Origin: an uncultured Gammaproteobacteria bacterium
GTDB lineage: Bacteria > Patescibacteriota > Patescibacteriia > Patescibacteriales > GWE2-39-37
Assembly (NCBI GenBank): GCA_964443495.1
Contig: CAYUCS010000001.1
Coordinates: 213,496 to 277,495 of the forward strand
DNA length: 64,000 bases
Direction of reading: 5' to 3'
Part shown: piece by piece, positions 12,369 through 63,872 of the stretch
Layout: each line of letters opens with the position of its first letter
Numbering within the stretch: position 1 is the first letter of the stretch
The notes under the pieces: model-generated
Seen by the model: the letters and a program-made list of their open reading frames with translations, nothing else
Database searches by the model: none
Told to the model about the DNA's origin: nothing
Program-made: the position numbers and the translations under genes

Positions 12369-12383
12369 CCATCGACACAAACC

Positions 12384-12665: not shown

Positions 12666-12727
12666 GCGTTTTAACGTCAGCTTAATCATGCGGCTGTAAA
12701 TTAACTTCATGGAATAAGGCCGCGCGT

Positions 12728-12952
12728 ATGAAAAAATTAATTTTCATATTAGTCCTCTCTGCCTTGGTTGGCGATCCGTTGGATTCGGGCTTTTTCGAAG
12801 CCCCAACCGGCGAACGTGTTTGGTGGAAATGGTTCGGCGCCTCGTTAGGCGTAATGGACGATAGGGGGCAGTGCTTTTGGAATGAGGGCGAGCCCAGGCC
12901 TTGCAGCTTCGCCGAGTTCAGCATAATGCTCAGCAGCGCGCCGCAGCTCTGA
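12728..12952 (+). CDS. Small putative secreted protein (74 aa)
   Basis: The N-terminus MKKLIFILVLSALVG is signal-like. There is no family match by eye. Confidence 0.3.
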   Translation: MKKLIFILVLSALVGDPLDSGFFEAPTGERVWWKWFGASLGVMDDRGQCFWNEGEPRPCSFAEFSIMLSSAPQL

Positions 12953-13046
12953 TTCGAAGCGAAGGCTGGGTTAATGATAATTTAATCAGGATCGTATTTA
13001 ATGATATGATAAGGCAAAAATAGCATATTACAACTAAGCTAAATAT

Positions 13047-13946
13047 ATGAAAAACATGAAAAACCAAAAGATAACCACGCATCTGTGGTATGACAAGGAG
13101 GCCAAAGAGGCGGCTGAATTCTATGTTTCCATTTTTGATGGTTCGAAAGTTAAAAATATCACAACGATCCACGACACCCCTTCCGGCGATGCCGACATCG
13201 TCGATATCGAGCTTGCCGGCGAAAGTTTTACCCTGATCAGTGCTGGACCGTATTTCAAGTTCACGCCGGCGGTTTCGTTCCTGGTCGCTTGCGACACCCC
13301 TGAGGAGGTAAATCTGTTGTGGGATAGGCTGTTCGAAGGCGGTTCGGCCTTGATGGAGCTCGGCAAGTACCCGTTCAGCGAGCGGTACGGCTGGCTGCAA
13401 GACAAGTACGGCCTTTCGTGGCAGATCATGCTCATGGGCGAGATGAGGGCGGCCCGCAAGATAACTCCGACAATGATGTTCGTGGGCGATGTAGCCGGCA
13501 AGGCAGAAGAAGCGATTAATTTCTACGTTTCAGTCTTTCGTGACTCGAAAATCGGAGACATTATGCGTTACGGAAAAGGCGAGGCGCCGGACAAGGAGGG
13601 AACGATAAAGCATGGGACGTTCGCTCTCGAAGGACTAGAATTTGCCGCCATGGACAGCGCATATAAGCATGATTTCGCGTTCAACGAGGCGATTTCGTTC
13701 ATGGTCCATTGCGACACCCAGGCAGAGATAGATTATTATTGGGACAAGCTTTCGGCGGTGCCGGAGGCGGAGCAGTGCGGCTGGCTCAAGGACAAATACG
13801 GCTTTTCGTGGCAGATCGTGCCGACGGCCATGGAGGAGATGATGAGCAGCGGCGACAGCGAAAAGATGGCACGAGTGACAGAAGCGTTCCTGAAGATGAA
13901 GAAATTCGACATTGCTGAATTGCAGAAAGCATATGAAGGCAGATAG
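13047..13946 (+). CDS. Tandem-domain VOC-superfamily protein (PhnB / 3-demethylubiquinone-9 3-methyltransferase-like domain x2)
   Basis: Two copies of the pattern ...FYVSxF.....I.......G.....F.L.G..F.......F.FN.A.SF.V.C....E.D..W..L......CGWLKDKYG(L/F)SWQI. Confidence 0.8.
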
Positions 13947-48900: not shown

Positions 48901-51900
48901 TGGAACCTCGATGACCTACATGCTTCCTGATATCGAGCTTTCAGCCGAGTATATGGTGCCACGCAACGCTGCCTATATCGCCGTCGCCTGCGTGCCGAAG
49001 CATGGCACGACCTCATTGAGCATTTATGATCCGAGCAATGTCTTTGTAACCAGCGCTACTTGTACTTCAACGACAAATAATCCAGGTAAGGTCAAATTTG
49101 GCGGCACCGATACCGTTACTTATGCGGCCGGCTCGCGCATCGTCTCGACCAACGGCAAGCCGTTCTATGCTTATTATGAAGATGTCGAACAGGTGGCGGT
49201 GACCGGCACGGGCGGCGACGAGAGCAATTTCCTTGGCGCTACGCAGGCCAGGAAGCAAGCTTCGACTTCTCCGATCATCACTTTGGGTACCGAGCAATCG
49301 AGCAAGATCACGGTTTCGGGCAAGGTTTACAGCGACCAGGGAGCGACGCCGCTCCTGACCCGGCCAGTCGTCCATCTGGTTGTCGGCGGAACCCTCATCT
49401 CATCTACCACTGCCTCCTCGACTGATGGCAGCTTCGTTTTCAATAATGTCACGATGCCGGAAACAGGCTCGAGTACCATCGTCTTTCTGGCCAGCTCGAC
49501 CGTTTCCGGTGTGACTTATGACCGCTATGCTGGTGCGGATAATATTACGGGGCTGGATATTTATCAGAATCACGTAATTGTTCGCAGTGACGCCGCCGGT
49601 TCGATCAGTAACGCTACGGTCGATCGCTACGATGCGGATCAGGACGCCTTCATTAAGGTCGCGGTGATTTCTGACAACCTGTCCGCTTCTTCGACTCAGC
49701 GGCTTTTCGTCTGGCCAGGCAGCACTTATCAGCCCGGAGGGGCGGTGACGCTGCCAGCGGGTGGCGGCGGAATCGGCGGCAGCCTCTATATCGCTACCTC
49801 CTCGATCATGAATGCCGAGGGCAATACGCTTTCGATCGGCGCTGGTTGGACCAATTTGGGCGAGTTCCAGAAGACCGCCGTCCAGTCCACCGTATTTACC
49901 GCCACTTCGACCGGTTTCGTCATCGATAACGCCACTTCGACCTTCAATCACGTCACCTTCAGTGCCAATGGCAGCTGGTCGCTGGCAACTTCGACGACTC
50001 TCGACGGCAACTTGTCCATGGCGACCGGCACCTTGTCGAGCCTTTATGATTTGACGGTCAAGGGCGGTACAGCTTCGGGCACCGGCATCGTCAGCCTGTC
50101 CGGCGGCACCTTTACGCTTCAGGGTTCGGGTGACTTCGGCGGCGCTAACGCCTGGACTTTCTATGATTTGGCTTTCGGCGACGGCGCGACCCCAGCCACG
50201 ACCACCAAGGCTGGCTTCGGTACGACCACTATCGCTAACCAGCTGGTAATCAATGCGAGCCACGTCTTGGATGCCGGCACGTCTGCTTGGATCGTAGGCG
50301 GCTCCGGCACGGCCCTGTCGGGCAGCGGCAGTCTCATCCCCTCATCTTCGCTATTCAGATTCACTGCGACGAGCAGCGTCAGCCTCGCGCCCAAGGATTT
50401 TTACCGCCTCGAGCTCGTGCCGGGGGCTGCGGGTTCGCCGAATTACGCCTTGGGAGCCGGAAGCCTATCGACGGCCGACTACTTGATAATCGGCGACGGC
50501 ACGAATCCGATCACGGTCTCGGCCAGCAATACGGCCCTAGATATAAACGGCGATTTCACCATCAATGCTTCGGCCACTTTTGCTGCGCCGACTTCTTCGA
50601 GCTTCACGGTCGCTGGCAATTGGGAAAATAACGGGACTTTCGATCATTCCGGCGGCACCGTCACGTTCGACGCTGGCAGTGCTGGGAAAATCGTCAACGT
50701 TGGCGGCTCGTCTTTCAGTACGGTGATTTTCAATAACCAGGCCGGCGACTGGACGATCGGCGAAAGCGCTACCTCGACCAGCGACTGGACGTTGGCGGCC
50801 GGAACCTTCATCGCTTCTTCTTCGATTACGATCGAAGTCGATGGGCTGTTCAGCAATCTGATCGGCGGCGCTTCGACCACCTGGGCAGGCACGACGCTCT
50901 ATCTTACGGGCGGAGCCCAGACGATCAGCGCCAGCACGACACCAGCAGAAACCTATGGCTCTTTGATTGTCGGGGCCAATACCGATGTCCGGATGTGGAA
51001 TTCTTCAGCTGCGTCATATTCCGTCGACCCGACTGGCTCGCTTTATTCGATGGATCATGGCAATGCTGACGGCGCTTTGGATATCTGGGGAGATTTCCAT
51101 ATTTCAGCCGGGACGGACGAATGGAGCTATCAGACCGATTTTGATGGCAGCGACCTCGCCGGTTCGCCCAGACAGGTCAACGTGGCCATAATTTCCGGCG
51201 GCACGGTTTCGGTCGATGGCGGCAACTTGAATATGATCGGTTCGTCAAGCCTGCCGACGACTATCGCCAACCAAGGAAGCGGCACTTATGCTTTCAATAT
51301 CAGTTCCGGTACTTTCAATGCTGATTATTACCAAGTCAGCAACGCCGATACTAACGGCCTGAATTTCTCAGGTTCGCCAGCCATCACCTCGTTGAATAAC
51401 GGCGATTTCCAGCTGGCTGGCTCGACCGGACGGGCGATTTCGCTGACGGCCAGCGCGGTTAATGCTAATCCGGGCAAGGTCATCTACGGTTGTAATTTCG
51501 CCACCACCACTGCCATCAGTTCGGCTTTTAACGTCTTTCTCGCGGCCGCGGCCGCCAGCAATTGGACCTTCGCCAACCACACCGGTACTTTCGCTGGCGA
51601 AACTTACGACAGCGATCCGGGCGATCCGACCGGCTATCTCGTCTGGGATGACAGCCCGGTCTATTCGCCGAAGGCCCGCAAATGGCGCTGGTATGACGAC
51701 ACGAACGCGGAAACTCCGGTCGTCCCGTCAGCCAACGAGGGCGTGATGCCGCAGAATATCGTCAACGGCGCCGATTTCAAGCTGCGGCAGTCGATCGATG
51801 CCACGAACATGACAGGGAATAACGTCAAGATGCGCTTGCAATATTCGACCTCGCCGACTTTCGCGAGCGATGTCAATTTCGTCGGGGAAATCGGTTCGAC

Positions 51901-54900
51901 GACGGTCGATTGGACCTATGCCAATGGCGCTGATGCTGACAATGCGGCCGTTTCGACGCTACTCTTATCCGATTCAGCCGCTGCCGCCACCCACAACGAA
52001 TCCGGCACATCGGCCTCGACCTATACCCATACCTTGAACACCGTAGCCGAGTGGGAGTTCACTCTCTTGGCGGCCAGCACCACTCCGGGAACGACCTATT
52101 ATTTCCGGCCGTATTTCAGCAATAAGCCGGTGACACTCGAAGACACGGAGACCCGACCGAGTATCTATGTCGCTGATAACATTTCCGTTTCTGGCACGGT
52201 CTATAGCGATGCTGGCTCGAACCAGCTCTTGAGCGGTCCGGTCGTCGGCTTGGCGATCGGCAATCAGCTGGTCGCGACCACGACCGCCTCGACGATCGAT
52301 GGCAGCTTCATCTTTAATAATATCACCCAGTTCTCGAGCGGCGCCTCGACAGCGATTTTCCTTGATAATTCCGAACTCGAGGCCTCGGGCGGCATCACTT
52401 ATTTCAATTCCACCTCGACCCCGGCCGATAACGGTTCCAGCGCTACCAACCCGACTGTCGTGACCCCTCCGACCAATATGCGAGACGGCGACTTGGTAAT
52501 CCTTGAAGCGGCCCATGGAGCCGGTACCGGCACCTTGTCCATTTCTAGCACTGGCGGCCAAGCCTGGACCGCCTTGACCCAGAGGGTTAATGCCACCAGG
52601 ACGGTTAACTTGTTCTGGGCGCGCTTCAACGGAACTTGGAGCGCCAACCCGAGCGTCAACATGGTCTCGGCGGTCAACAACATCGTCGTGATGCACGTCT
52701 TCCGTCCGGGCTATTCGGGCAGCACTTGGGAGATAGATGTGCCGGAAACGAGCAATACCTATGCCGCCGCTTCACCGGTCACGATTACAGGGATATCTAC
52801 CCAGACTGACGGAGCCCTGGTTTTTGCCGCCTGGACTAGTGCCGATGACAATACTTGGGGTGCGGCAACGGCCGGCTGGTCAACTCCTGGCACTGCCCAA
52901 TATCGCAACACTTCCGGTACGGCCGATCAGTCTATAACTTCCGCGTATCGTGTCATGGCCACGGCCGGACCGACTGGCAATGTTAGTAAGACGCAGACGG
53001 CATTAGGTCCTGATGCCGGCACTCGATACATCATCGCTTTCAAAGAGGTCAAGCCGACCTCGGTCTATGGTGTCGCTTTCAACCGCTATGCCGGTTCGAG
53101 TGATATGGCTAATTATGATATCTACCAAGACCGGGTCATCGTCCGCAACGACGATGCCGGTCCGATCACTAATGCTGACATCAATAATTACGATGCCGAC
53201 CAGAATTCGCAGATCAAAGCCGGCGTCGCTTCAGCGAATCTGACCGTGCCATCAACCCAGATGCTCTACATCTGGCAGAATAGTACTTTCCGGCCAGCTG
53301 GCCAAATCGCGCTCCAATCAGGTGCCGCACCCGCATCGATAGGCGGAGATTTGATAATCAATACCGGCTCTATCTTTAATGCAGAATCGAATGCCGTTTC
53401 CATAGGCGGCGATTGGACCAATCTAGGATCGTTCCAGTCGAATGCTGGCCAGACGGTCTCGTTCACCTCGACTTCGACCGGCTACAGCATCGTTACCGGC
53501 GGTTCCGGCTTCATGAATGTGGCCTTTTCAGGTGTCGGCGGCGGTTGGTCTTTCACCGACCCCGCGACCATCAACGGCGACCTGGATATGGCTACCGGCA
53601 CCTTGTCAGGCACGAATTCCATCTCGGTCAAAGGCGGCGGCGCCACCGGCAACGGCACCATCGATCTGACCGGCGGCACTTTTACGATCGATGGCACCGG
53701 CGATTTCGGCGGCTTCATCGATTGGAATTTTTACGGCCTGGAAATCGGCGACGGCGTCTGGACCGATGCCACCTCCAAGGTCGGCACTAACAATATCCTG
53801 GTCAACGGACCGATGACGATAAACGCCGGCCAAACCTTGAATGCCAGTAGCAGCACCTGGACGCTGGCGGCTAGCGGTACGCCGTTGGCTGTGAGCGGCA
53901 TCCTTAATCCGGAACAATCGACCTTCAGATTCGTTTCAACCGATGACATTAATCTGACTCCGGCAACTTTTTACAATCTTGAATTATCGCCGAACGGTGC
54001 CGGTTCGCCGAGTTACGGTTTCTATGGCGGCACCCTGGCAACTAATAACCTCACTATCGGCGACGGTACGAACCCTGTGACGGTCGCCGCCAACGTCGAT
54101 AACCCGGTCGTCGATGTCAATGGCGACTTCCTGATCCGCAGCAGCGCCATTTTCGTCGCCTCGGCTTTCAGCCCCTTCTACGCCGGCGGCAGCTGGCAGA
54201 ATGACGGCACGTTCTCGAGCAACAACGGCACAGTCGTCTTCGATGCCGGCACGACCGGCAAGACGATCGCTCCGGGCGGCTCGTCTTTTCATGGGGTCGA
54301 ATTCAACGGAGCAGCCGGTGGTTGGACTCTGGGTGCCAACGCCACTTCAACGGACAGCTTCAGCTTGGTGGCCGGCCAGTCCTTCACGCTCTCGTCCGGT
54401 TCGACCTTGGCGATCCTCAACGGCTTCAGCAACGCCTTCAACCAGGCTTCGACCACTTGGACCGGTTCGACCATCCACTTCGCCGGCAGCTCGCGCACGA
54501 TCAACGGCAAGGCCAGCAGCTCTGACGCGTACGGCACCATCAAGGTCGGCGCCAACACCGATATCAGGCTTTGGAACTCCTCGGCCACTTCGTACGACAT
54601 CGACTCAACCGGTTCATTCTATTCGATGGATCATGGCAATATCGACGGCTCGCTCTTCATTTGGGGCGATTATCACGTCGGAGCAGGGCAGACCGAGTAC
54701 TGGAATTGGCAGATCGATTTCGACGGCGCTTCGCTTGCCGGCTCGGAGCGCCAAGCCAACATACGCTTGGCTTCGAGCACGAACGTGACCGTCGATGGCG
54801 GCACGCTGCAGATCTTGGGCACCACGACGGCCAGTTCGACGGTCGATAGCCAGGGTTCAGGCTACTTCGGCTTGGCGGTCAGCAGCGGCACCCTGAATGC

Positions 54901-56281
54901 TGGTTATTATAAGATCAGCAATACCGACACCAACGGCCTCTCACTCTCGAATGCCTCGACCATCACCTCGATCGATAACGGGGAGTATGTTTTGGGAGTC
55001 AACGGCGGTTCCTCGATTACGGTCACGCCGAGCCTTATGGCTGCCAACCCGGCCAAGACGATCAGCGGCTGCAGCTTCGCTTCTTCGACCGGCGTGTTCG
55101 GCTACAACGTCAAGCTGGCCAGCGCGGCAGCGACCGAGTGGACTTTTGTTGGCCTAGCCGGCAACCTGGCTGGCGAGGATTTCGATAGCGATGTCGGCGA
55201 TCCGCGCGGCTATATCATCTGGGATAACAGTCCGACCTATGTGCCTTTATCGCAGAAATGGCAATGGTTCCATGATGAGGACCAGGAGACGCCGCTGGCT
55301 CCGGCTGGCGGGGAAGAGGTGGCACCGTCGGGCATTCCGCGGGGCAACGTCCTCAAGCTGCGGCTCTCGATCAAGGCGACGAACGGTCTGGCAGGAAGCA
55401 ACGTCAAGATGAGGCTGCAGTATTCGACCTTTTCCGATTTTTCCAATAACGTCAATTTCGTGGGCGAAATCGGCTCCTCAACTTCAATCTGGAATTATGG
55501 CGACGGCATCGACGCTGATAATGCGCCGGCCAGTTCGTACTTCCTGTCTGACTCCGATGCCACCTCGACGCATAACGAATCCGGCATCTCGGCCTCGACC
55601 TATGCCCATGGCGCCGATGCGGTCGCCGAGTGGGAATTTACCGTCGCCAATAACGGCGCCGAAGCAGGCACGACCTACTTCTTCCGCGCCTATACTGATC
55701 AGTACGGCGTCCAAGGCGTTGAGCCGAATCTGGGCAATTTTTATCCGAGCCTGACCGCCGGCGATGAGGCATTGGGCACGACCTTGTCCGGACTGCCGAG
55801 CGGTACGGCGACCGAAGGAGTAGTTACTAATATCAATACTGACCAAGTGACGGTACCGTTCGGCAATCTGCCGTTCGGCAGTTCGGTAACCGGCGCTCAT
55901 CGTCTGCTGATCTCGACCAATGGCGAGAGCGGATATCAGCTGTTCGTCAAGCAGAGCCAGGACCTGACTAATGGCCATGGCGTGACGATCAATGCCGTCA
56001 CGGCTGACAACGCCAATCCTCAGGCTTGGCCGATGACGCCTGATCCGGCTGCTTTCGGCTATCACACGAGCGACGACACCCTGTCCGGCGCTTCGCCGTC
56101 GCGTTTCGCTCCGAATAACAGCTACGCCAAGTTCGAGACAGGCATCCAAGAGGTCGGCTACAGTCCGATTCCTGTCTCCAACGATCCGATCGACCTGATC
56201 TATCGCATCGAGGTTTCGGATCAGCAGCAGCCGGGCGACTATGTAACCCAAGTCGAATATATCTTAGTGCCGACATATTGA
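45929..56281 (+). CDS. Giant (3,450 aa) signal-anchored surface protein: acidic spacer, DUF2341-like module, two ~1-kaa super-repeats, C-terminal WxL-like domain
   Basis: Uninterrupted 10,353-nt ORF. TM AVGLFFLLWTVTGLGPV. E/P/A-rich region at ~aa 170-300. DUF2341-type segment WWNGSWPYKLPITIDN...DIRF...IYLYYGN at ~47830-48135. The last 170 aa are homologous to the C-terminus of the 57413..58435 product. Confidence 0.85.
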   Translation: MPKKVKTIISKFKRFFATNQQEVRRSRPVVRVMQDIVPPSVLRISNEVLGIKEYGSNNLKIFGRAWRGAVGLFFLLWTVTGLGPVDVIRKSVAALAGEDIQTVNLYATDCSIETAASSSWQHLEKISGAPDLAADATSSDFTEGNSASYLGGSGNVTCTGFRQAAPAVEIKTEEDAPSVVGVEPAKEAVEIKEEPIAEDIAVVKEDGEQASSSTIVEEEKAEATIEEPIVVIEDAATSGQPSIGIKTEEGESSNDTPASEPSELQTTEPTPEAVEPSVLQETADLIIETVEEVADIVENLIDEIVLMAGAKQGEDSLKNLGRLKGAKINLSLSQNFATSTEKEKADAAEVATSTSFVGVKILYSTDAPGEDSPDSKIWHELVELPETDLSACVEATSSDCLIFRLAEYAQAGYLSFAAPEIESWEDVENIQVKLEGGHNGAADYRLSLDSVWVEASYDDNREELDQDDGYESFDKIFVDGKEINFEFTDDNSDENLIIRSNRKDYYGVTDAVVYFSVTNASAKREAVNLQVHFPEDKGGVAKLEQLRKDIWTETELDGGELPSPNVFKQVFGQEIKRKHVPETMRPKNSTRGGGHLIGPGKTQYYKMRITYPAGTRGEFFIEAVGDGQGYGLLDPWWNGSWPYKLPITIDNTANTSALTDYQVLVEIDSTTAGFWDNVNADGSDIRFLNSAQDTQLNHWTQYFDKTGSSTQIWVQVDSIPAASTSQIYLYYGNGAAASTSDMYTTFSYATMQDLYYVVRGSLTNATVTVVSLIDNNQVQLDNGTATNLNRQQIAKLVPVTQTSVLRAKGPVQASITGVAAGATLVPISYAGTAFVMPLNSGTTESWSRYAPFVRATTTIYNGNTLGNTTAINAGAAATTAYNITTTGRLLSTNPILAAWYATATTYSAAVYPATTRDLYGIRSGTNNIGFTGNTDFSIYCSSGASLNVTGRTTAALYANTTCATVTEGGGNAVRLTGQTNPIGGVVYNDSDGTSMTYMLPDIELSAEYMVPRNAAYIAVACVPKHGTTSLSIYDPSNVFVTSATCTSTTNNPGKVKFGGTDTVTYAAGSRIVSTNGKPFYAYYEDVEQVAVTGTGGDESNFLGATQARKQASTSPIITLGTEQSSKITVSGKVYSDQGATPLLTRPVVHLVVGGTLISSTTASSTDGSFVFNNVTMPETGSSTIVFLASSTVSGVTYDRYAGADNITGLDIYQNHVIVRSDAAGSISNATVDRYDADQDAFIKVAVISDNLSASSTQRLFVWPGSTYQPGGAVTLPAGGGGIGGSLYIATSSIMNAEGNTLSIGAGWTNLGEFQKTAVQSTVFTATSTGFVIDNATSTFNHVTFSANGSWSLATSTTLDGNLSMATGTLSSLYDLTVKGGTASGTGIVSLSGGTFTLQGSGDFGGANAWTFYDLAFGDGATPATTTKAGFGTTTIANQLVINASHVLDAGTSAWIVGGSGTALSGSGSLIPSSSLFRFTATSSVSLAPKDFYRLELVPGAAGSPNYALGAGSLSTADYLIIGDGTNPITVSASNTALDINGDFTINASATFAAPTSSSFTVAGNWENNGTFDHSGGTVTFDAGSAGKIVNVGGSSFSTVIFNNQAGDWTIGESATSTSDWTLAAGTFIASSSITIEVDGLFSNLIGGASTTWAGTTLYLTGGAQTISASTTPAETYGSLIVGANTDVRMWNSSAASYSVDPTGSLYSMDHGNADGALDIWGDFHISAGTDEWSYQTDFDGSDLAGSPRQVNVAIISGGTVSVDGGNLNMIGSSSLPTTIANQGSGTYAFNISSGTFNADYYQVSNADTNGLNFSGSPAITSLNNGDFQLAGSTGRAISLTASAVNANPGKVIYGCNFATTTAISSAFNVFLAAAAASNWTFANHTGTFAGETYDSDPGDPTGYLVWDDSPVYSPKARKWRWYDDTNAETPVVPSANEGVMPQNIVNGADFKLRQSIDATNMTGNNVKMRLQYSTSPTFASDVNFVGEIGSTTVDWTYANGADADNAAVSTLLLSDSAAAATHNESGTSASTYTHTLNTVAEWEFTLLAASTTPGTTYYFRPYFSNKPVTLEDTETRPSIYVADNISVSGTVYSDAGSNQLLSGPVVGLAIGNQLVATTTASTIDGSFIFNNITQFSSGASTAIFLDNSELEASGGITYFNSTSTPADNGSSATNPTVVTPPTNMRDGDLVILEAAHGAGTGTLSISSTGGQAWTALTQRVNATRTVNLFWARFNGTWSANPSVNMVSAVNNIVVMHVFRPGYSGSTWEIDVPETSNTYAAASPVTITGISTQTDGALVFAAWTSADDNTWGAATAGWSTPGTAQYRNTSGTADQSITSAYRVMATAGPTGNVSKTQTALGPDAGTRYIIAFKEVKPTSVYGVAFNRYAGSSDMANYDIYQDRVIVRNDDAGPITNADINNYDADQNSQIKAGVASANLTVPSTQMLYIWQNSTFRPAGQIALQSGAAPASIGGDLIINTGSIFNAESNAVSIGGDWTNLGSFQSNAGQTVSFTSTSTGYSIVTGGSGFMNVAFSGVGGGWSFTDPATINGDLDMATGTLSGTNSISVKGGGATGNGTIDLTGGTFTIDGTGDFGGFIDWNFYGLEIGDGVWTDATSKVGTNNILVNGPMTINAGQTLNASSSTWTLAASGTPLAVSGILNPEQSTFRFVSTDDINLTPATFYNLELSPNGAGSPSYGFYGGTLATNNLTIGDGTNPVTVAANVDNPVVDVNGDFLIRSSAIFVASAFSPFYAGGSWQNDGTFSSNNGTVVFDAGTTGKTIAPGGSSFHGVEFNGAAGGWTLGANATSTDSFSLVAGQSFTLSSGSTLAILNGFSNAFNQASTTWTGSTIHFAGSSRTINGKASSSDAYGTIKVGANTDIRLWNSSATSYDIDSTGSFYSMDHGNIDGSLFIWGDYHVGAGQTEYWNWQIDFDGASLAGSERQANIRLASSTNVTVDGGTLQILGTTTASSTVDSQGSGYFGLAVSSGTLNAGYYKISNTDTNGLSLSNASTITSIDNGEYVLGVNGGSSITVTPSLMAANPAKTISGCSFASSTGVFGYNVKLASAAATEWTFVGLAGNLAGEDFDSDVGDPRGYIIWDNSPTYVPLSQKWQWFHDEDQETPLAPAGGEEVAPSGIPRGNVLKLRLSIKATNGLAGSNVKMRLQYSTFSDFSNNVNFVGEIGSSTSIWNYGDGIDADNAPASSYFLSDSDATSTHNESGISASTYAHGADAVAEWEFTVANNGAEAGTTYFFRAYTDQYGVQGVEPNLGNFYPSLTAGDEALGTTLSGLPSGTATEGVVTNINTDQVTVPFGNLPFGSSVTGAHRLLISTNGESGYQLFVKQSQDLTNGHGVTINAVTADNANPQAWPMTPDPAAFGYHTSDDTLSGASPSRFAPNNSYAKFETGIQEVGYSPIPVSNDPIDLIYRIEVSDQQQPGDYVTQVEYILVPTY
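49305..52176 (+). repeat. Super-repeat copy A of the giant gene (~957 aa)
   Basis: It begins ITVSGKVYSDQGATPLL.. and ends ..TTYYFRPYFSNKPVTLEDTETRPSIYVADN. It is colinear with copy B: YDRYAGADNITGLDIYQNHVIVR / FNRYAGSSDMANYDIYQDRVIVR, and WRWYDD..NVKMRLQYSTS / WQWFHD..NVKMRLQYSTF. Confidence 0.8.
52180..55765 (+). repeat. Super-repeat copy B of the giant gene (~1,195 aa) carrying a ~230-aa insertion (~52380-53060)
   Basis: It begins ISVSGTVYSDAGSNQLL... The insertion (..PPTNMRDGDLVILEAAHGAGTGTLSISSTGGQAWTAL..ALVFAAWTSADDNTW..) has no counterpart in copy A. Confidence 0.8.
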
Positions 56282-57039
56282 TGAAATTTTCAATTTTCAA
56301 TTTTCAATTTTCAATTGGCCAAGGGTTATTGTTGATGTTTTTAGGTATGGTTTTGTCCGGTTGCCAGCTGCCGTTTGCTGACAAGACGCCGGAGCGCCCT
56401 GAGGTGCTGATTGCGCAGGAGTGCGGTATGGACGGCCTCAAATGCTGCTTGACCGAACCGGCTTGTTCTTACGGCCAGAAATGCTGTACCGATCCGGCTG
56501 ATCCGAGCCGCAACCGCTGCGCTGACGAGTGCGGCTGTGGCGGCCAGGAAGAGTTCTGCTGCGTTGACGGGCCCAAGTGCAAGGCCGGGCTGTCGTGTCA
56601 GTCGGGCAATTGCCAGCTGTGCGGCATCGAGGGCAAGGCTTGCTGCACCGGCGATGACGGTAATGTCCTGGCCGACGGTTTGGCTGGCTACAACCCGGCT
56701 TGCCCGGGCAAGGCGGCCAGCTCGACCGCTTTGGCCTGTCAGAATGACACTTGCGTCGCCTGCGGCCTGCCGGGCAATCCTTGCTGCATTGTCGGAGACA
56801 AGTGCATGAGTCCGGCGACAGGCTTGGCCGAGTGCCTGGCTGGCACTTGCCGCCTGTGCGGCGTCAACGGCGAACCGGCCTGCCAAACCGAGCCGCGCTG
56901 CCAGTCAGGCCACTTGCTTAACAACGACGCTTGCCTGCCGTGCGGCCAGGCTAACCAGCCGTGCTGCCAGGATCAGCAAGGCCAGCAAATCTGCGATAGT
57001 AAAAAGAATCTGGTCTGCGAGTTGGGGTTTTGCAAGTAG
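56281..57039 (+). CDS. Cysteine-rich lipoprotein (~37 Cys in 252 aa) with six CxxCGxxGxxCC-type modules
   Basis: The ATG overlaps the giant gene's TGA (TGATG). Signal peptide MKFSIFNFQFSIGQGLLLMFLGMVLSG|C with lipobox LSGC. Modules: ECGMDGLKCC, ECGCGGQEEFCC, CQLCGIEGKACC, CVACGLPGNPCC, CRLCGVNGEPAC, CLPCGQANQPCC. Confidence 0.75.
   Translation: MKFSIFNFQFSIGQGLLLMFLGMVLSGCQLPFADKTPERPEVLIAQECGMDGLKCCLTEPACSYGQKCCTDPADPSRNRCADECGCGGQEEFCCVDGPKCKAGLSCQSGNCQLCGIEGKACCTGDDGNVLADGLAGYNPACPGKAASSTALACQNDTCVACGLPGNPCCIVGDKCMSPATGLAECLAGTCRLCGVNGEPACQTEPRCQSGHLLNNDACLPCGQANQPCCQDQQGQQICDSKKNLVCELGFCK
56285..56316 (+). repeat. Heptanucleotide tandem repeat (AATTTTC)x4.6 inside the lipoprotein signal-peptide codons
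   Basis: Units at 56285-91, 56292-98, 56299-305 and 56306-312, plus a partial aatt. The unit length is not divisible by 3. Confidence 0.85.
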
Positions 57040-57412: not shown

Positions 57413-58435
57413 ATGCAAAAATTAAGAAAAATCGTAGCCTTCATGGCCATCGTCTCGTTGGTGGCTGTCAACGGCTTCGTTTCAACGGCAAATGCCGCAT
57501 CAATAACAAACGCCAGTGATCGCTTAAGCGATTCTGATGTTAGTGTTTCCGCAACGCATACCATTACATTTACAACAACGGTTCCTACTCCGACCAATGG
57601 ATATTTTCAGGTTGTGATTCCGGCTGCTTTTGGCAACATGGTTTCCCCAACTTGTCCTGGTGGCATGACTGCCTCAGTTATTGACACTGAAACGTCAAGA
57701 TGTATTTCTACCGCAGGCACAGCCTCGGGAACGTACACCATAGTGCTCACTGGTATTGCTAACCCAGCATCAGTTGGTAGTCAGATTATAAACTTAACCA
57801 ACAAGGATAATAGTAATAATCTGTTAGAATCTGCTACAATGATGGTTGCTATAGTTGATAATATTGACGTATCCGCCACCGTTGCCGCCACTTTGACTTT
57901 TGAAATCCGCCCTCTGGCTACTACGACCCCGATCAACGGCGCCACCACTACCGCTGCTTCGGCCACGACTTCGTTGGCCTTCGGCACGCTGCAGGTCGGC
58001 ACCTCGTCGATCATGGGCCAGGAACTTCGCGTAACTACCAACGCCGATAGCGGTTACACGGTGACCGTCGAACAGGATTCCAACCTGACCAGCGCTGGCG
58101 GCTCCGATATTGACGCTTTCGCCAACGGCGCCACCTCCACTCCTGCCGCTTGGGCAGCTCCGGCCGGTACCCTTGATTCAGAGGCTACCTATGGCCACTT
58201 CGGTTTGACGACCGATGATGCTACTGGCGGCGGCACCCAGGACTTTACCTCAAGCAAGTGGCGCGGTCTCGATAATAACGTCCCAGTGGCCGTGATGTAC
58301 CACAACGGCCCGGCTGACGGCTCGACCCAGGACAAGGGTATGGCCAAGGTCGCTTACCGCATCCAGATCTCGGCACTGCAAGAAGCCGGTGATTACACCA
58401 GTGTTCTGACCTACATCGCCACCCCAGTTTACTAA
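57413..58435 (+). CDS. Secreted protein: N-terminal Ig-like domain plus a C-terminal WxL-like domain (Tyr replaces Trp)
   Basis: ATG 57413 gives signal peptide MQKLRKIVAFMAIVSLVAVNGFVSTANA; the track start at 57317 has no support. The C-terminal ~190 aa align with the giant's C-terminus: FG.L..G.S, TN..SGY...V.Q, FG..T.DD, YRI..S..Q.GDY.....YI..P.Y. Confidence 0.8.
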   Translation: MQKLRKIVAFMAIVSLVAVNGFVSTANAASITNASDRLSDSDVSVSATHTITFTTTVPTPTNGYFQVVIPAAFGNMVSPTCPGGMTASVIDTETSRCISTAGTASGTYTIVLTGIANPASVGSQIINLTNKDNSNNLLESATMMVAIVDNIDVSATVAATLTFEIRPLATTTPINGATTTAASATTSLAFGTLQVGTSSIMGQELRVTTNADSGYTVTVEQDSNLTSAGGSDIDAFANGATSTPAAWAAPAGTLDSEATYGHFGLTTDDATGGGTQDFTSSKWRGLDNNVPVAVMYHNGPADGSTQDKGMAKVAYRIQISALQEAGDYTSVLTYIATPVY

Positions 58436-58458
58436 ACGAAAACAGTCCGTACATAAAA

Positions 58459-58487
58459 AGAGGCGCCTAGCATGGGGCGCCTCTTTT
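58459..58487 (+). terminator. Rho-independent terminator after the WxL-like gene
   Basis: agaggcgcc/ggcgcctct 9-bp stem, 8-nt loop, TTTT. Confidence 0.8.
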
Positions 58488-58534
58488 GTTTGTGATGACG
58501 CCAATAATAAGGGAAAAATCTCTCGGATTTTCCT

Positions 58535-58563
58535 TTGTCAAAGGACGTAAAAATTGCTATAAT
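58535..58563 (+). promoter_or_regulatory. Promoter of the three-paralog operon (TTGTCA - 17 nt - TGCTATAAT)
   Basis: -35 at 58535-58540 and extended -10 at 58555-58563. Confidence 0.65.
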
Positions 58564-58647: not shown

Positions 58648-59772
58648 ATGAAGAAAACGAGCATTCTTGGCCGCTTGGCCGGCCTGATATCATTGGCGTC
58701 ATTGGTCATCATGACTATGGCCATGCCGCAGAAAACTTTGGCGGCCGAAGCCATTATGTTGAGCCCGTCGCGGGTGGAAGAATTGGTTTCGCCAGGGCAG
58801 GTGATAACCAAGACCATCAAGGTGACTAACAATTCGGAGTCACCGAAGAAAATCTACGCCTATCTGCGTGATTTCACCGCCGAGGGCGAGGAGGGCAAGC
58901 CTCGCTTGATCGTCCCGGGTACGGAACAGGGTTCATTCTTGTCATCTTGGATCGCGATCACTTCCGAGGGTGTGGATATTTCCGCGGGAGGCGATGCGGA
59001 GTTCGCTTACACCGTGACCGTGCCGCAGAATGCCGGCCCGGGCGGCTATTACGGCGCCATCATATTCGGCACCCGGGCGCCTGACGTCAAGATCGACTCG
59101 GTTGAAAAAGGCGCGGCTATCGGCGTGGCCCAGCAGGCCGGCTCACTGATTCTCTTGCAGATTCCTGGCGATGCCAACGAGACCGCGTCAATTCGCGATT
59201 TCATCACCGACAAGGAGTTTTACAGTACGCCCTTCAACGTCAATTTTACAGCCAGGATTCAGAACCAGGGCAATGTCCACATCAAGCCGCGCGGCACGAT
59301 TGAAATCACCAACATGCTTGGCAACAAAGTCGCTAACGTCCGGGTCAACGATACCGGTTCGAACATTCTGCCTAACAGTACTCGACGCTACGAGATGCCA
59401 TGGAGCGGTGATTTCGGCTTCGGCAAGTACAAGGCCCAGCTAGCCTTGACCTATGGCACATCGGCTGAGCAGGGAGGTAACGGCATGCAATCGCTGACCT
59501 CGATCAAATATTTCTGGATTTTCCCGTGGAAGATTATCGGCATCGTCGTTTCGAGTATCGCTTTCGTCATCGCCGCCATCTTTGTCTTCCTGAAGATTTA
59601 CAAGAACAAGGCGATCGAGAGCGCCATGAGTGAGATGGGGGTCGGCAGCGAATACTACGTCAAGAAGACTCAAGGCGGCTCGCCGGCTTTGCATCTTGGG
59701 CTGACCCTGGCGATACTTTTGGCGGTCGTCTTCCTGCTGGCAGCCGTGACTTATTTCCTGTTCTTCGCCTAA
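58648..59772 (+). CDS. DUF916/DUF3324-like cell-surface protein, paralog 1 (signal peptide, two beta-sandwich domains, C-terminal TM anchors)
   Basis: PGQVITKTIKVTNNSESPKKIYAYLRDF...SWIAI.....ISAGG.AEF.YTV.VPQNAGPGGYYGAIIF, then ...IQNQGNVHIKPRGTIEITN..G..V.....N..G..ILPNSTRRYE..W....GFGKYKA.L.L.YG, then FWIFPW + TM + KIYKNK. Confidence 0.75.
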   Translation: MKKTSILGRLAGLISLASLVIMTMAMPQKTLAAEAIMLSPSRVEELVSPGQVITKTIKVTNNSESPKKIYAYLRDFTAEGEEGKPRLIVPGTEQGSFLSSWIAITSEGVDISAGGDAEFAYTVTVPQNAGPGGYYGAIIFGTRAPDVKIDSVEKGAAIGVAQQAGSLILLQIPGDANETASIRDFITDKEFYSTPFNVNFTARIQNQGNVHIKPRGTIEITNMLGNKVANVRVNDTGSNILPNSTRRYEMPWSGDFGFGKYKAQLALTYGTSAEQGGNGMQSLTSIKYFWIFPWKIIGIVVSSIAFVIAAIFVFLKIYKNKAIESAMSEMGVGSEYYVKKTQGGSPALHLGLTLAILLAVVFLLAAVTYFLFFA

Positions 59773-59793
59773 TCAAAAAAGCAAACGGTAATA

Positions 59794-60777
59794 ATGAAAA
59801 ATTCCGGAAAAATATCCTTGTCTTTAGCGCTGGCCCTGATGATCGGCTGGCATGGCATCGGCACTGCCCAGGCGCAGACCATAGCCGCCGACGTGACGAT
59901 AACGCCGAGCATCATCGATGAGCAGGCGGAGGCCAAGGAAATCATCGAACGCACAGTCAAATTGAAGAATAATACCGCCGCCAAACTCGAACTCTATCCC
60001 ACGGTCAATGACGTCAAGCAGGACGAGGGTAAACAGGAGTTCGTCGATCCGAGCAACCTGGATCGCGCCACTTCGCTGGCCCGTTGGATCGAGATCCGGC
60101 GCGGAGTCGTCGAACTGAATCCTGGACAGGAAGTAGAGCTGCCGCTGAAGATCACTGTCAATATGAACGCCACGCCGGGCAAGTATTTCGCCGCCATCAC
60201 CTTTCCCAACGGTTCCAATCGTTCCGAGGCCGAAGCGCAAGGCGGCCAGCCGCAGATGATGATCAGTATCGAGGTGAGGGAGCATGCGGTCGAGAAAGCG
60301 GAAAATTTCGTCTTTTCGACGGAGAAATCGGTGAATTTCAACAATCAGGTCAAGTTCCTGATCGGGTTGAAGAATATCGGCAACAAGGAGATTTACCCCA
60401 AGGGATCGGTCATCATCTATGATCGGCGAGAGCGGGAGGTCGAGGTCATTGACGTGAATTATAACCAGCAGATCGTCAAGCCGGGCGAGAACCCGCAGTT
60501 CGAGCCGACCTGGTCGGCCGGCAAGCGGATGGGCAAGTTCAAAGCCAAGCTGGAGGTCGAATACGGCAAGTCAGGCGACCGCAACATCCAGGACACTATC
60601 TATTTCTGGATCCTGCCTTGGTGGCTCCTGGCCATGATCTGCCTCTTGGTCCTGCTGCTGATCACAAGCGTTTGGCTCCTTTACGCCCGCATCAAGCACC
60701 ACAGCCGCATCATCCAGTCAGCCCAGGAAGAAGCGAAATCACCGATAATAAATTTAAAAAATAGGCCAAGGCATTAA
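59794..60777 (+). CDS. DUF916/DUF3324-like cell-surface protein, paralog 2
   Basis: Same architecture: KLKNNTAAKLELYP, ARWIEI, TPGKYFAAITF, LKNIGNKEIYPKGSVIIYD, KPGENPQFEPTWS, MGKFKAKLEVEYG, FWILPWW + TM + RIKHH. Confidence 0.75.
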   Translation: MKNSGKISLSLALALMIGWHGIGTAQAQTIAADVTITPSIIDEQAEAKEIIERTVKLKNNTAAKLELYPTVNDVKQDEGKQEFVDPSNLDRATSLARWIEIRRGVVELNPGQEVELPLKITVNMNATPGKYFAAITFPNGSNRSEAEAQGGQPQMMISIEVREHAVEKAENFVFSTEKSVNFNNQVKFLIGLKNIGNKEIYPKGSVIIYDRREREVEVIDVNYNQQIVKPGENPQFEPTWSAGKRMGKFKAKLEVEYGKSGDRNIQDTIYFWILPWWLLAMICLLVLLLITSVWLLYARIKHHSRIIQSAQEEAKSPIINLKNRPRH

Positions 60778-60782
60778 TAATT

Positions 60783-62519
60783 ATGAAACCCAGTCCTAAG
60801 ACAAAAATAATCGTTTCACTGGCTTTGGCCGCGATTTTCAGCGGCTTTTTAGGCGGTCAGGCGTCTGCCCAGCAGGACAGCTCGATGATACTTTCCATCA
60901 CGCCGCCGCTCTTCAAGGTGAATATGAAGCCGGGCGAGACTTGGTCCAGCGTGGTCAAAGTCGTGAATAATAACGCTTATCCCGTTACCGTCTATACGCA
61001 GGTGGCTGATTTCAAGTCCGGTGAGGCTGGCGGAGTGGAGTTCGTCAAGAGCGAACCGGACGCCGCCGGCAAGGGCTACACCTTGAGCCAGTGGCTGGAA
61101 ATAACTTCCGAGCCGGTAGAAATCAGCGCTTTTGGCAGCAAGGATGTGCCTTTCAAGGTCATGCTGCCGCAGACCGCCGATCCGGGAGGACATTATGCCG
61201 CCATCTTGGTCGGCAACAAGCCGATCGACAACACCACGGGCAGCGTGGTCAAGATATCTTCCAAGCTGGCTTCGCTGCTTTTGGTGCGAGTGGCTGGCGA
61301 AGTGGTGGAAAAAGGCGACGTACGCGAATTCTCGACCAGCAAGGACTTCGCCAAGAAGACCGAGGCTGATTTCACGGTCCGTTTCGTCAACAAGGGCAAT
61401 GTTCATCTGCGGCCAGAGGGCGAGGTCAAGATTACCAACATGTTCGGCCAGACCCGCGGCGTGATTTCGATCAACAAGAAATCTGAATTCGGCAATGTCC
61501 TGCCAGAAAGCGAGAAGAAATGGGAGTTCAACTGGAAGGGTGAGAGTAGCATCTGGGACGCCGGGCGCATGCAGGCCGAACTTTTCTTGAGCTACGGCGA
61601 AGAAGGCAAGCAATCCGAAGTCCGGAAAATAAATTTCTGGGTGGTCAATCTCAAGCCGACCTTGATCGTCCTTGGCAGCCTGCTGCTTGTCGTTTTACTG
61701 TTCATTTTCTTCGTCAGGCGCTTCATCAAGAAGAGCATCAGCAAGGCTAGGATGGAGGCTGATGCATTGGCCGGGCGATTGGGGCGCACGGCGCCGGCCG
61801 TCGAGCGGCCAACTGCGTCCGTCAAGGCGCCGGCCGGCAAGATGGATGGCGTGGTCGTCAATCTGCGTGATGCTGGTTCTAATTCTAATAATTTAAATAA
61901 TAAAACAACCAAACTTATGAACTGGAGTTTCTTAAAGAATGTTCTGCTCTTTATCGTCGTCGCCTTAATCGTGGTAGCCGGCGCCTTCTTCTACAGTCAG
62001 TACAAGAAGAACTCGTCAGGCAGCGCCACTGAGGACAATGCGCCCAAGAGCACTGGCGTGACAGTGATCAATAACGGCGCCACTTCATCCGCCCAGGCCG
62101 TCGAGACGGTCGATGAGACAGCTACGACGACCGCCACTTCGACCGAGGCTGTCGCCACTTCTACGGATGCTATGGCCACTTCGACCGAGGCTGTCGCCAC
62201 TTCGACTGCCACTACCACGGCTGAGGCTTTGCCTAATGCTTTAGACAAAAAGGATGTCAAGCTTAACATACTGAACGGCAGCGGCGTGACCGGGGTGAGC
62301 GGCAAGGCCGCCAAGATCATTGAGGATGCCGGCTATGTCGTGGCCTCGAAGGGTAATGCGGCTAACTTCAACTTCGCTGTGACTGAAATTACTTACGGTC
62401 CGGATGTTGCAGACAATGCGCTGGCCATCGACCAGCTTGTTGGCGGCGATAGCAAATTGACCGAAGACCCGGCTGCTAGCGGCAAGATAACCGTCACTCT
62501 GGGTAAGAATTTCAAATAA
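60783..62519 (+). CDS. DUF916/DUF3324-like cell-surface protein, paralog 3, extended by a second TM, a Thr/Ala/Ser-rich linker and a C-terminal LytR_C-like domain
   Basis: PGETWSSVVKVVNNNAYPVTVYTQVADF, SQWLEI, DPGGHYAAILVG, FVNKGNVHLRPEGEVKITN, LPESEKKWEFNW, FWVVNL + TM. The C-terminus VKLNILNGSGVTGVSGKAAKIIEDAGYVV...ITVTLGKNF matches the LytR_C pattern. Confidence 0.75.
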   Translation: MKPSPKTKIIVSLALAAIFSGFLGGQASAQQDSSMILSITPPLFKVNMKPGETWSSVVKVVNNNAYPVTVYTQVADFKSGEAGGVEFVKSEPDAAGKGYTLSQWLEITSEPVEISAFGSKDVPFKVMLPQTADPGGHYAAILVGNKPIDNTTGSVVKISSKLASLLLVRVAGEVVEKGDVREFSTSKDFAKKTEADFTVRFVNKGNVHLRPEGEVKITNMFGQTRGVISINKKSEFGNVLPESEKKWEFNWKGESSIWDAGRMQAELFLSYGEEGKQSEVRKINFWVVNLKPTLIVLGSLLLVVLLFIFFVRRFIKKSISKARMEADALAGRLGRTAPAVERPTASVKAPAGKMDGVVVNLRDAGSNSNNLNNKTTKLMNWSFLKNVLLFIVVALIVVAGAFFYSQYKKNSSGSATEDNAPKSTGVTVINNGATSSAQAVETVDETATTTATSTEAVATSTDAMATSTEAVATSTATTTAEALPNALDKKDVKLNILNGSGVTGVSGKAAKIIEDAGYVVASKGNAANFNFAVTEITYGPDVADNALAIDQLVGGDSKLTEDPAASGKITVTLGKNFK

Positions 62520-62602: not shown

Positions 62603-63451
62603 ATGGACCGGACAATCAACTTAAAATCGAAGCAGCGTTCGTCCTGGCTAGGCACCAGGGAGATTGTCGTGGTCATCTCGTCGATAGTCTTGACCACTGT
62701 GGGCATCAAAGCGGCTGATAATTTCATGAATACCGGCGGCGAACAGGGAAGCGGTGCCTGTCCTGCGGACATGGTCCAGGTCTTGTCATCCGGCGGCAGT
62801 TTCTGCATCGATAAGTACGAGTCATCAGCCGGTCCGGATTGCCCTCACGCCAGCCCAACGACCCAAGCCGAGACCAGAAATAATTTGGATAACGTCAATT
62901 GCCGGGCGGTGTCGGCCAAGGGCGCCTTGCCTTGGCGCAATATTTCCCAGAACCAAGCCGCTTCGGCCTGCGCCAAAGCGGGCAAGCGCCTGCCGACCAA
63001 CAAGGAGTGGTTCCAGGCCGCCATGGGCACGCCTGATCCGGAGACCGGCTGGGGGGCTGACGATTGCAATGTCAGCAAAAATTGGGGCAGCCAGCCCGGA
63101 CAGACCGGCTCGGGCGGCAAGTGCGTTTCAGCGGCCGGTGCCAGCGATATGGTCGGCAATGTCTGGGAGTGGGTCCAGGGCACTATCTATAACGGCGAAT
63201 ACGAGAACAGGGCTCTGCCTAAACAGGGCTATGTCGCCGCCATGGATGAGAATTCTTTGCCGAGCGAAACGGCCGAGTCGGCCGACCCGAATTATGATGA
63301 GGATTATCTTTATATCAAGAACAGCGGCACGCGTGGCATCGCTCGCGGCGGCTACTGGGACAACAAGATGGAAGCGGGCGTCAATTCCGCTTATATGGTC
63401 TCTTCACCTTCGTTCGCCGGCGATGGCATCGGCTTCCGTTGCGTGAAGTGA
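62603..63451 (+). CDS. Membrane-anchored FGE-sulfatase (SUMF1/formylglycine-generating-enzyme-like) domain protein
   Basis: TM IVVVISSIVLTTVGI. Motifs FCIDKYE, ALPWRNISQNQAASACAKAGKRLPTNKEW, DMVGNVWEWV, RGGYW, GIGFRCV. Confidence 0.8.
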   Translation: MDRTINLKSKQRSSWLGTREIVVVISSIVLTTVGIKAADNFMNTGGEQGSGACPADMVQVLSSGGSFCIDKYESSAGPDCPHASPTTQAETRNNLDNVNCRAVSAKGALPWRNISQNQAASACAKAGKRLPTNKEWFQAAMGTPDPETGWGADDCNVSKNWGSQPGQTGSGGKCVSAAGASDMVGNVWEWVQGTIYNGEYENRALPKQGYVAAMDENSLPSETAESADPNYDEDYLYIKNSGTRGIARGGYWDNKMEAGVNSAYMVSSPSFAGDGIGFRCVK

Positions 63452-63470: not shown

Positions 63471-63872
63471 ATGATGGATTTCGAGCATTCGACAATCGAA
63501 CGGGCGATCCTGCCCGGCCGGGCGCCCAGAAGAGTGCAAATCGGTCTTTTAGGCTTGTTTTGCGCTGCCGTCTTGGCCAGCTGCCCGATATTTCCAGGTA
63601 CGGCAGGCGCCGTCACCAATGTTTCGATGAGCGTCGAGGAGAATCCTTATAACAAAGTAGCGGCTCAGCTGCAGCAGAAGGAGAAGGATATTTCTGAACG
63701 GGAGAGCTTGCTGAACAAGTATGAAAAAGAGCTTCAACGGAGCAATATGACTCTGGCGCTTTTTGTCTTGATCCTGTTCTTACTGATTATGCTCAATTAT
63801 TATCTGGATTATCACCGCAAGAAGCTGGATGAAGAGAAGCGTCCTGATAATGTCAGGTATTTAAAGCTGTGA
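63471..63872 (+). CDS. Small bitopic membrane protein with a coiled-coil segment
   Basis: SD AAGGAGGA upstream. Hydrophobic segments IGLLGLFCAAVLASCPIF and LALFVLILFLLIMLNYY flank QLQQKEKDISERESLLNKYEKELQ. Confidence 0.55.
   Translation: MMDFEHSTIERAILPGRAPRRVQIGLLGLFCAAVLASCPIFPGTAGAVTNVSMSVEENPYNKVAAQLQQKEKDISERESLLNKYEKELQRSNMTLALFVLILFLLIMLNYYLDYHRKKLDEEKRPDNVRYLKL

Follow-up and report, generated by a model that had tools for sequence, protein, structure and literature searches.

The window analysed here, a 64,000-nucleotide (nt) stretch of contig CAYUCS010000001.1 (positions 213,496 to 277,495), carries three tandem genes, P1, P2, and P3 (58648-59772, 59794-60777, and 60783-62519 of the window, all on the + strand), whose products probably serve, from the membrane, to assemble or anchor the subunits of a Pam-like surface-fibre locus; the organism is a Falkowbacteria-like member of the candidate phyla radiation (CPR). 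The three proteins most likely serve as membrane-anchored donor-strand chaperones or anchors, and P3 would in addition be tied to the wall zone. Members of the CPR presumably live attached to other cells, and their surface fibres are leading candidates for making contact with a host.

The Pam pilus is the best-fitting described system for the locus. Pam pili were recognised in 2026 in one cultured Saccharimonadia species, in a preprint in which cryo-electron microscopy (cryo-EM) of Candidatus Mycosynbacter amalyticus filaments led to the pilins PamA and PamB (10.64898/2026.03.03.709456). Each of these pilins consists of an N-terminal sandwich, a donated linker strand, and a truncated immunoglobulin (Ig)-like C-terminal domain (CTD). 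The assembly factors come from prediction: PamC and PamD as PapD/FimC-like chaperones with a signal peptide and a C-terminal transmembrane (TM) helix, and PamR as a TM-anchored RbmA-like tether (10.64898/2026.03.03.709456).

Family, topology, and fold of the three paralogs

The open reading frames (ORFs) of P1, P2, and P3 encode 374, 327, and 578 aa, respectively, and P1 ends with ...YFLFFA. Pairwise BLASTP over approximately 260-300 aa gave 27% identity for P1/P2 (E 2e-34), 32% for P1/P3 (E 7e-43), and 28% for P2/P3 (E 2e-23); by sequence, they are genuine diverged paralogs whose similarity is well above chance. The P1-P2-P3 order was kept in a Falkowbacteria metagenome-assembled genome (82% identity) and in three more distant genomes (37-43%), and a bit-score matrix resolved the copies into three separate orthogroups across four other genomes. 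The triplication is thus old, as had been claimed in an earlier note made from the DNA letters alone, and predates these lineages. A chance or overlapping-ORF artefact was ruled out, with orthologs found at 33-82% identity and the architecture kept.

A Kyte-Doolittle scan detected an N-terminal signal-like segment in P1 and P3; the N-terminus of P2 stayed under the threshold, and those of its orthologs in the related loci L001-L005 were above it. Downstream of the ectodomain, P1 has two TM segments (residues 296-314 and 354-372), and P2 has a single one (278-296) followed by a basic tail. P3 comprises a predicted signal peptide (1-29), a WxLIP-like ectodomain (30-290), a first TM segment (TM1, 293-311), a basic loop (312-386), a second TM segment (TM2, 387-405), a Thr/Ala/Ser linker (406-490), and a LytR_C domain (491-577). 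P1 and P3 therefore each gain a TM hairpin compared with the single-TM P2. The inter-TM loop of P3 contains 15 K/R versus 5 D/E, which, under the positive-inside rule, makes the loop cytoplasmic and leaves the ectodomain and LytR_C on the outer side. By sequence, all three proteins are thus exported and stay anchored in the cytoplasmic membrane through a TM helix, and each displays a two-domain Ig-like ectodomain. The layout described in the earlier note held up on these points, namely the two-domain ectodomain plus TM common to all three (hydropathy and the P3 model below), the second C-terminal TM of P1, and the basic stretch, second TM, linker repeat, and LytR_C domain of P3. Across orthologs, the TM pattern is type-specific: two segments follow the ectodomain in 39/43 P1-type and 68/80 P3-type proteins and a single one in 71/78 P2-type proteins.

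The cytoplasmic tail of P2 terminates with a conserved (V/I)INLK motif, and the loop of P3 contains VVNLR. A common pattern, (V/I)(V/I)NL(K/R), was seen in all five P2-type tails inspected and in P3-type TM1-TM2 loops (in the window at 60700-60777 for the P2 tail and approximately 61850-61870 for the P3 loop, and in the orthologs of L001, L003, L004, and L005); counted over whole proteins, the strict pattern is present in 34/64 P3 orthologs. Its presence in both types suggests a common cytoplasmic partner or contact.

In current Pfam releases, DUF916 is named WxLIP_PGBD (PF06030) and DUF3324 is named WxLIP_HBD (PF11797). WxLIP_PGBD matched P3 with 31.0 bits (gathering score 27.3), making it the only paralog above that score; the match in P2 was sub-threshold (E 0.009), and P1 had no WxLIP_PGBD match in the Pfam scan. 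Among the 64 P3 orthologs, 60 matched this family. When the P3 ectodomain was compared with 72,556 plasmids using tblastn, at least 18 of the 22 matches fell on DUF916-annotated genes, from Streptomyces, Paenibacillus, Clavibacter, Cellulosimicrobium, and Lactiplantibacillus; the best match (Embleya) and two Enterococcus matches fell on unannotated sequence. The Paenibacillus DUF916 gene adjoins a gene for a short WxL protein and one for a 1048-aa protein with a C-terminal WxL domain, a neighbourhood that is a textbook WxL cluster. BLASTP aligned P3 with the Paenibacillus protein through both domains to the TM (E 6e-10), and P1 matched the same protein (E 5e-10). P3 also aligned with the canonical DUF916+DUF3324 protein of L. 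plantarum (E 2e-11), where YFDLKLKPKQ is paired with LFKVNMKPGE, the strand that Hassan et al. name as conserved (PMC10599100).

An AlphaFold2 model of P3, built on the 64 orthologs, had pLDDT values that mostly exceeded 85, and largely 90, in both the ectodomain and LytR_C. It consists of two beta-sandwich domains, a long helix running through TM1, a second TM helix, a disordered linker, and an alpha/beta C-terminal domain, with helices at residues 5-23 and 290-334. In a Foldseek search of the PDB, the first ranks were taken by 9i1y and 9i25 (E 3e-13), crystal structures of WxLIP of E. faecium, the latter titled as bound to long WxL. The next matches were the chaperone-usher chaperones CfaA, CsuC, Caf1M, EcpB, DraB, CupB2, and YadV (E 1e-10 to 1e-8, target TM-score approximately 0.5), and RbmA was also matched (E 4e-9). 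The first domain of the model closes with a low-confidence loop (residues 151-159) and a hydrophobic strand (162-170, LASLLLVRV). Judging by position, we take residues 151-170 to lie where chaperone-usher chaperones carry the F1-G1 loop and the G1 donor strand. The Pfam matches, the BLASTP matches to WxLIPs of WxL clusters, and the WxLIP crystal structures at the top of the Foldseek ranking together indicate, from sequence and model, that P1-P3 belong to the DUF916/WxLIP lineage. The earlier note had treated PapD-like chaperones as an unrelated family whose match would overturn this assignment; "WxLIP or PapD-like" is a false alternative, because one P3 model matches both sets of structures.

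The LytR_C domain of P3 (62253-62513, + strand) was assigned to PF13399 with E 9e-12 (46 bits, cutoff 22). Within the preceding linker, an ATSTEAV-heptad repeat (62132-62206, + strand) is encoded by 3.6 copies of a 21-bp tandem unit; the linker of approximately 85 residues is flexible and would be long enough to reach the wall zone. LytR_C was matched in 64/64 P3 orthologs, and the profile of these orthologs matched M. tuberculosis 2m5y, a LytR_C-only protein (E 5e-9). The LCP catalytic domain was not found in P3 or its 64 orthologs using Pfam, which leaves LytR_C alone. Dozens of full-length P3 relatives with 33-48% identity retain the fusion. As variants of proteins of this kind, neither the LytR_C fusion nor the TM hairpins have been described before.

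Partner subunits and conservation across CPR

Two proteins encoded upstream of the trio carry a putative Pam-type CTD. The first is a giant surface protein of 3450 aa (45929-56281, + strand) with DUF2341 (E 9e-17) and a C-terminal Pam-type pilin domain (approximately aa 3281-3450), the 'large' subunit and a candidate tip adhesin. The second is a pilin-like subunit of 340 aa (57413-58435, + strand) with a signal peptide, an N-terminal beta-sandwich, and a C-terminal Pam-type domain ending with ...AGDYTSVLTYIATPVY; its true start is the Met at 57413, because homologs of approximately 340 aa align from this internal Met. The NCBIfam model NF058581 (CPR_Pam_pilin_C, Pam pilus system pilin subunit) has 148 positions and a curated cutoff of 55 bits. 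The pilin matched positions 3-148 of this model (E 1.4e-6), and the last 145 aa of the giant protein matched positions 4-148 (E 3e-5); the full profile was thus covered at 24-28 bits, below the cutoff. Of the 67 pilin orthologs, 66 matched NF058581 (best E 1.8e-10), and the C-terminus of the giant protein also matched a purpose-built hidden Markov model (HMM) of the pilin CTD (E 1e-20). The AlphaFold2 model of the pilin (pLDDT 92) contained two all-beta domains. Neither the pilin nor its profile matched any sequence in the PDB. Foldseek of the full-length pilin retrieved generic two-Ig-domain adhesins, the CfaE/CsuE tip adhesins, and BslA, and no PamA, PamB, or WxL chain was among the top 50 matches; the two-domain query probably blurs this comparison.

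The closest homologs of P3 were found in Candidatus Falkowbacteria and other Parcubacteria-type CPR genomes, and the trio of the window lies in a Falkowbacteria-like CPR locus. A species-level scan of one genome per GTDB species yielded 80 loci, or 79 after L014, on the same contig as L005, was set aside; their ORFs were classed with purpose-built HMMs. At least one protein with the pilin CTD was present in 73/79 loci and in all of the 34 flank-complete loci, defined as having at least 4 kb on both sides; the partnership with small and giant Pam-type-CTD proteins is obligatory in the genomes. Within the flank-complete loci, WxLIP-like copies numbered three in 24 and two in 10, so three, which the earlier note had raised as a possible conserved number, is the commonest state and not a fixed one. 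Two layouts were recognised: that of the window (giant protein, pilin or pilins, P1, P2, P3) and a second one (CTD protein, P2, P3, CTD protein, P1). At the same position as in the window, giant proteins orthologous to the 3450-aa protein were encoded in L001, L003, L004, and L005. The family comprised 7,852 cluster representatives (50% identity clusters; HMMER, E up to 1e-3), and the trio locus is native to and widespread in CPR. A system related to Pam, with a conserved set of two or three membrane-anchored factors, is widespread in Falkowbacteria/Parcubacteria-type lineages, and fusion to the wall-zone domain LytR_C has been retained repeatedly in one of the factors (23/79 species-level loci).

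Some family members of 640-800 aa (P0271, P0274, and P0280) matched the P1 query in two or three stretches and may be tandem fusions of two ectodomains.

Proposed role and alternative explanations

In the mechanism that we propose, the ectodomains would capture the incomplete Ig-like CTD of newly secreted subunits, and a strand from the first domain of the ectodomain would be inserted into it (donor-strand complementation). Subunits would be kept on the outer side of the membrane for as long as the inserted strand has not given way to the linker strand of the following subunit; in a simpler variant, the ectodomains would only hold subunits there. The three types would probably divide the labour; for example, each could serve its own subunit, or some could chaperone while others terminate or anchor. 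The LytR_C domain of P3, on its long linker, would reach the wall zone and could there bind wall material or other LytR_C or LCP proteins, which would set or fix the place of assembly. VirR of M. tuberculosis, a LytR_C-only protein, is located at the nascent wall and contacts LCP proteins via LytR_C-LytR_C interactions (PMC11832169). Wall attachment of P3 via LytR_C is plausible, and tethering to wall-synthesis proteins, or self-association, is just as possible.

The likeness to the Pam system lies in the CPR origin and in three TM-anchored proteins per locus beside proteins whose CTD matches the Pam-pilin profile below its cutoff. As described for PamC and PamD, the window's proteins have a signal peptide, two beta-sandwich domains of a fold like that of chaperone-usher chaperones, and a C-terminal TM anchor; in contrast to the single helix of PamC and PamD, P1 and P3 have a TM hairpin, and P3 adds the linker and LytR_C. 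The lineage also differs (Falkowbacteria/Parcubacteria-type here, Saccharimonadia for Pam), and the window's pilins are distant and sub-threshold to the NCBIfam Pam model. The preprint reports an ATP-synthase neighbourhood and contains no mention of WxL, DUF916, or LytR (10.64898/2026.03.03.709456). With PapD, FimC, CfaA, CsuC, and Caf1M, the trio shares the two-domain Ig-like fold, a resemblance in fold only; unlike these chaperones, P1-P3 have no profile match to them, are membrane-anchored rather than soluble, and occur with no usher and no outer membrane. VirR (Rv0431, 2m5y), Cei (Rv2700), and the LCP-LytR_C ligases of Actinomycetota likewise display an extracellular LytR_C on a membrane protein, whereas P3 differs from all of them in that its LytR_C is fused to a WxLIP-like ectodomain via a TM hairpin, and from the ligases also in having no LCP catalytic domain.

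One of the three types could instead be a PamR-like terminator or tether that donates a strand to the last pilin and secures the fibre on membrane and wall. Candidates are the P2 type, with its single TM, and the P3 type, with its LytR_C. This explanation, which is compatible with the role proposed above, seems somewhat unlikely to us. TM-anchored two-domain proteins likewise number three in M. amalyticus (PamC, PamD, and the RbmA-like PamR), RbmA was among the Foldseek matches, P2 is the most divergent type with its own TM and tail pattern, and LytR_C would suit an anchor. On the other hand, P1-P3 are clear paralogs with the same domains, while PamR is described as belonging to another fold class (a pair of fibronectin type III domains) than PamC and PamD.

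It is also conceivable, and in our judgement unlikely, that P1-P3 are static WxLIP-type anchors, holding a monomeric small protein and a giant adhesin permanently via their CTDs with no polymerisation. The best structural match is WxLIP, including the complex of WxLIP with long WxL, and in the proposal of Hassan et al., WxLIP binds WxL and makes it more stable (PMC10599100). Similarities to the Firmicute WxLIP/CscA proteins (PMC10599100; 9i1y, 9i25) extend to the homologous first domain, to the order of signal peptide, two Ig-like domains, and TM, and to the partners, one small and one very large protein with the binding domain at the extreme C-terminus; the small and giant CTD proteins thus mirror the pairing of short and long WxL proteins. 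Permanent anchoring would also agree with the fact that no filament has been seen in this lineage. What speaks against it is that the subunit CTD matches the profile of Pam pilins, which polymerise by donor-strand exchange, that the pilin has the build of PamA and PamB (N-terminal domain, linker, and CTD), and that a terminator-like hairpin after the pilin gene suits a highly expressed polymerising subunit. The trio further differs from Firmicute WxLIP in its three paralogs instead of the usual one, its extra TM hairpins and LytR_C, its lack of a DUF3324 profile match, its partners without Pfam WxL, and its CPR host.

Very improbable, despite the genuine DUF916 homology, is a Firmicute-style Csc/WxL complex (the frame of the earlier note) that serves carbohydrate use or binding to a host and that this genome acquired or shares: the Pfam WxL domain (PF13731) was not matched in any of the 67 pilin orthologs (E up to 1), no LPXTG/CscD-type or CscB/C-type protein was present among the neighbours scanned, the locus is native to CPR (80 species-level loci, 7852 cluster representatives), and, with Pam-type CTD proteins as partners instead, it falls outside the definition of a WxL cluster as having at least two proteins with PF13731 (PMC10599100).

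Several observations weigh against the role of P1-P3 as donor-strand chaperones or anchors of a fibre. The chaperone role of PamC and PamD is itself a prediction (10.64898/2026.03.03.709456), and P1-P3 are likened to these proteins (WP_260763277.1 and WP_260763284.1) by their description in the preprint and not by sequence; the NCBIfam scan of P1-P3 (E up to 0.1) returned noise and no PamC/PamD-type model, and PapD-type Pfam profiles had no match in P1-P3 or the 64 P3 orthologs. Strand insertion is suggested by the modelled fold and the title of the 9i25 entry, and no filament has been observed in this lineage. By sequence, the window's pilins are distant relatives of the experimentally defined Pam pilins; matches to NF058581 stay at 19-30 bits (cutoff 55), and a scan of the pilins of type-B loci for an above-cutoff Pam bridge to Saccharimonadia found none, all of them again scoring 19-30 bits. 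The DUF3324 half of the "DUF916/DUF3324-like" assignment in the earlier note did not stand, in that PF11797 was matched in none of P1-P3 (Pfam, E up to 0.1) and was absent among the 25 families listed for the 64 P3 orthologs (E up to 0.01); the second Ig-like domain is nonetheless visible in the P3 model, and the Paenibacillus WxL-cluster protein likewise falls below the PF11797 threshold. LytR_C is missing from 56/79 loci, and 10 of the 34 complete loci have two copies, so the LytR_C fusion is not essential to the system. The function of LytR_C is called unknown in a Streptomyces study, with no established wall binding (PMC11481543).

The trio ties together two systems that have so far been described separately, the Gram-positive WxL clusters and the Pam pili. 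We tentatively suggest that Pam pili and the WxL/Csc clusters of Firmicutes and Actinomycetota could be branches of one ancient single-membrane system, in which a membrane-anchored DUF916-type protein donates a strand that completes the Ig-like CTDs of small and giant secreted subunits. An AlphaFold prediction by Hassan et al., in which a DUF916 hairpin inserts into WxL (PMC10599100), is donor-strand complementation in all but name. The CPR pilin CTD and the WxL domain are parallel in their position at the extreme C-terminus, their occurrence in one small and one giant protein per cluster, their last-strand motif, and their DUF916-family TM partner; these parallels are striking yet circumstantial. 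When the CTD profile was aligned with a WxL profile (built from 19 Paenibacillus proteins, L. plantarum, one long WxL protein, and one Clavibacter neighbour) using hhalign, only the last strand was aligned, AGDYTSVLTYIATP with AGTYKSVFTYTATS, at a probability of 4.8%, and hmmsearch between the two was not significant in either direction, both alignments being of low diversity (Neff approximately 2.8).

On a Clavibacter plasmid (L008, 5101-5727), an unannotated 208-aa protein encoded beside a DUF916 gene ends with ...AGDYSSTITLSLFE and has no Pfam WxL match; because this ending is the last-strand motif of both WxL proteins and CPR pilins, actinobacterial clusters may be WxL/Pam intermediates.

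If Pam and WxL form one system, WxLIP would be a chaperone or anchor of the PapD kind, the WxL domain would be the counterpart of the Pam pilin CTD, and the WxL proteins of Enterococcus, Listeria, and Lactobacillus might form strand-exchanged fibres or complexes; in these genera, the partners of the DUF916/WxLIP family are reported as involved in virulence (PMC10599100). The LytR_C-bearing P3 would then be a dedicated coupling of the machinery to the wall. Enterococcal crystal structures and genetics would become usable for uncultured CPR, and the CPR cryo-EM work would suggest a concrete mechanism for WxL proteins. We found no paper linking WxL to pili or chaperone-usher systems in the searchable literature, and we regard this link, as yet an idea, as the part worth following up.

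Neighbouring genes and regulatory elements

The giant protein seems to hold two long internal repeats, for example VSGKVYSDQGATPLL and VSGTVYSDAGSNQLL, and contains recurring 'NFVGEIGS...' modules, with DUF2341 near residue 700. Its stop codon is overlapped by 4 nt by the TTG start of a gene for a Cys-rich protein of 253 aa (56278-57039, + strand), which has 37 Cys and a lipoprotein-like signal (LSGC) and matched no Pfam or NCBIfam family. The position of this gene is occupied by genes of 244 aa in L001 and 204 aa in L003, likened by position alone.

Directly 3' of the pilin gene lies a terminator-like hairpin (58456-58487, + strand; a 13-bp stem followed by a T-rich tail). It is followed upstream of P1 by a sigma-70-like promoter match (58535-58563, + strand), consisting of TTGTCA, a 17-nt spacer with TG, and TATAAT; this is a near-consensus match with an extended -10 (11/12 positions), based on consensus only. 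The gaps between P1 and P2 and between P2 and P3 are 21 and 5 nt, respectively. The hairpin and promoter match at 58456-58563 suggest different expression levels for the pilin and the trio, and the layout would fit a subunit gene with high expression ahead of an assembly module that is tuned separately.

Downstream of the trio is a gene for an FGE-sulfatase-type TM-anchored protein of 282 aa (62603-63451, + strand; PF03781, E 1.5e-16). FGE-type genes also follow the trio in L001 (11771-12619), L004 (11790-12632 and 13123-13959), and L005 (two copies, 11828-13586). The FGE target motif [CS]x[PA]xR was not found in the pilin, the giant protein, or the trio. A serine of PamA bears an unidentified modification (10.64898/2026.03.03.709456), and by analogy a modifying role of the FGE-type protein is conceivable. 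The next gene encodes a 133-aa protein with two hydrophobic segments (63471-63872, + strand), and genes of 127-157 aa occupy the same position in related loci.

A gene of approximately 600 aa lies 3-5 genes 3' of the trio in L001 (13040-14911), L003 (12383-14182), L004 (14018-15982), and L005 (14240-16030), a position beyond the 3' end of the window. The start of its product resembles the N-terminal domain of the pilin (E 1e-8 to 6e-12), and this product lacks the pilin CTD; judging by the resemblance, it may be another component of the fibre. Behind its gene come one for HSP20 and a second one of approximately 590 aa.

Loci L009, L017, L018, L055, and L084, together with many 'Saccharibacteria' third-party assembly (TPA) records, are typical CPR loci under mismatched titles, and the taxonomic labels of these third-party assemblies (e.g., 'uncultured Gammaproteobacteria bacterium'), which were not relied on for taxonomy, look unreliable.

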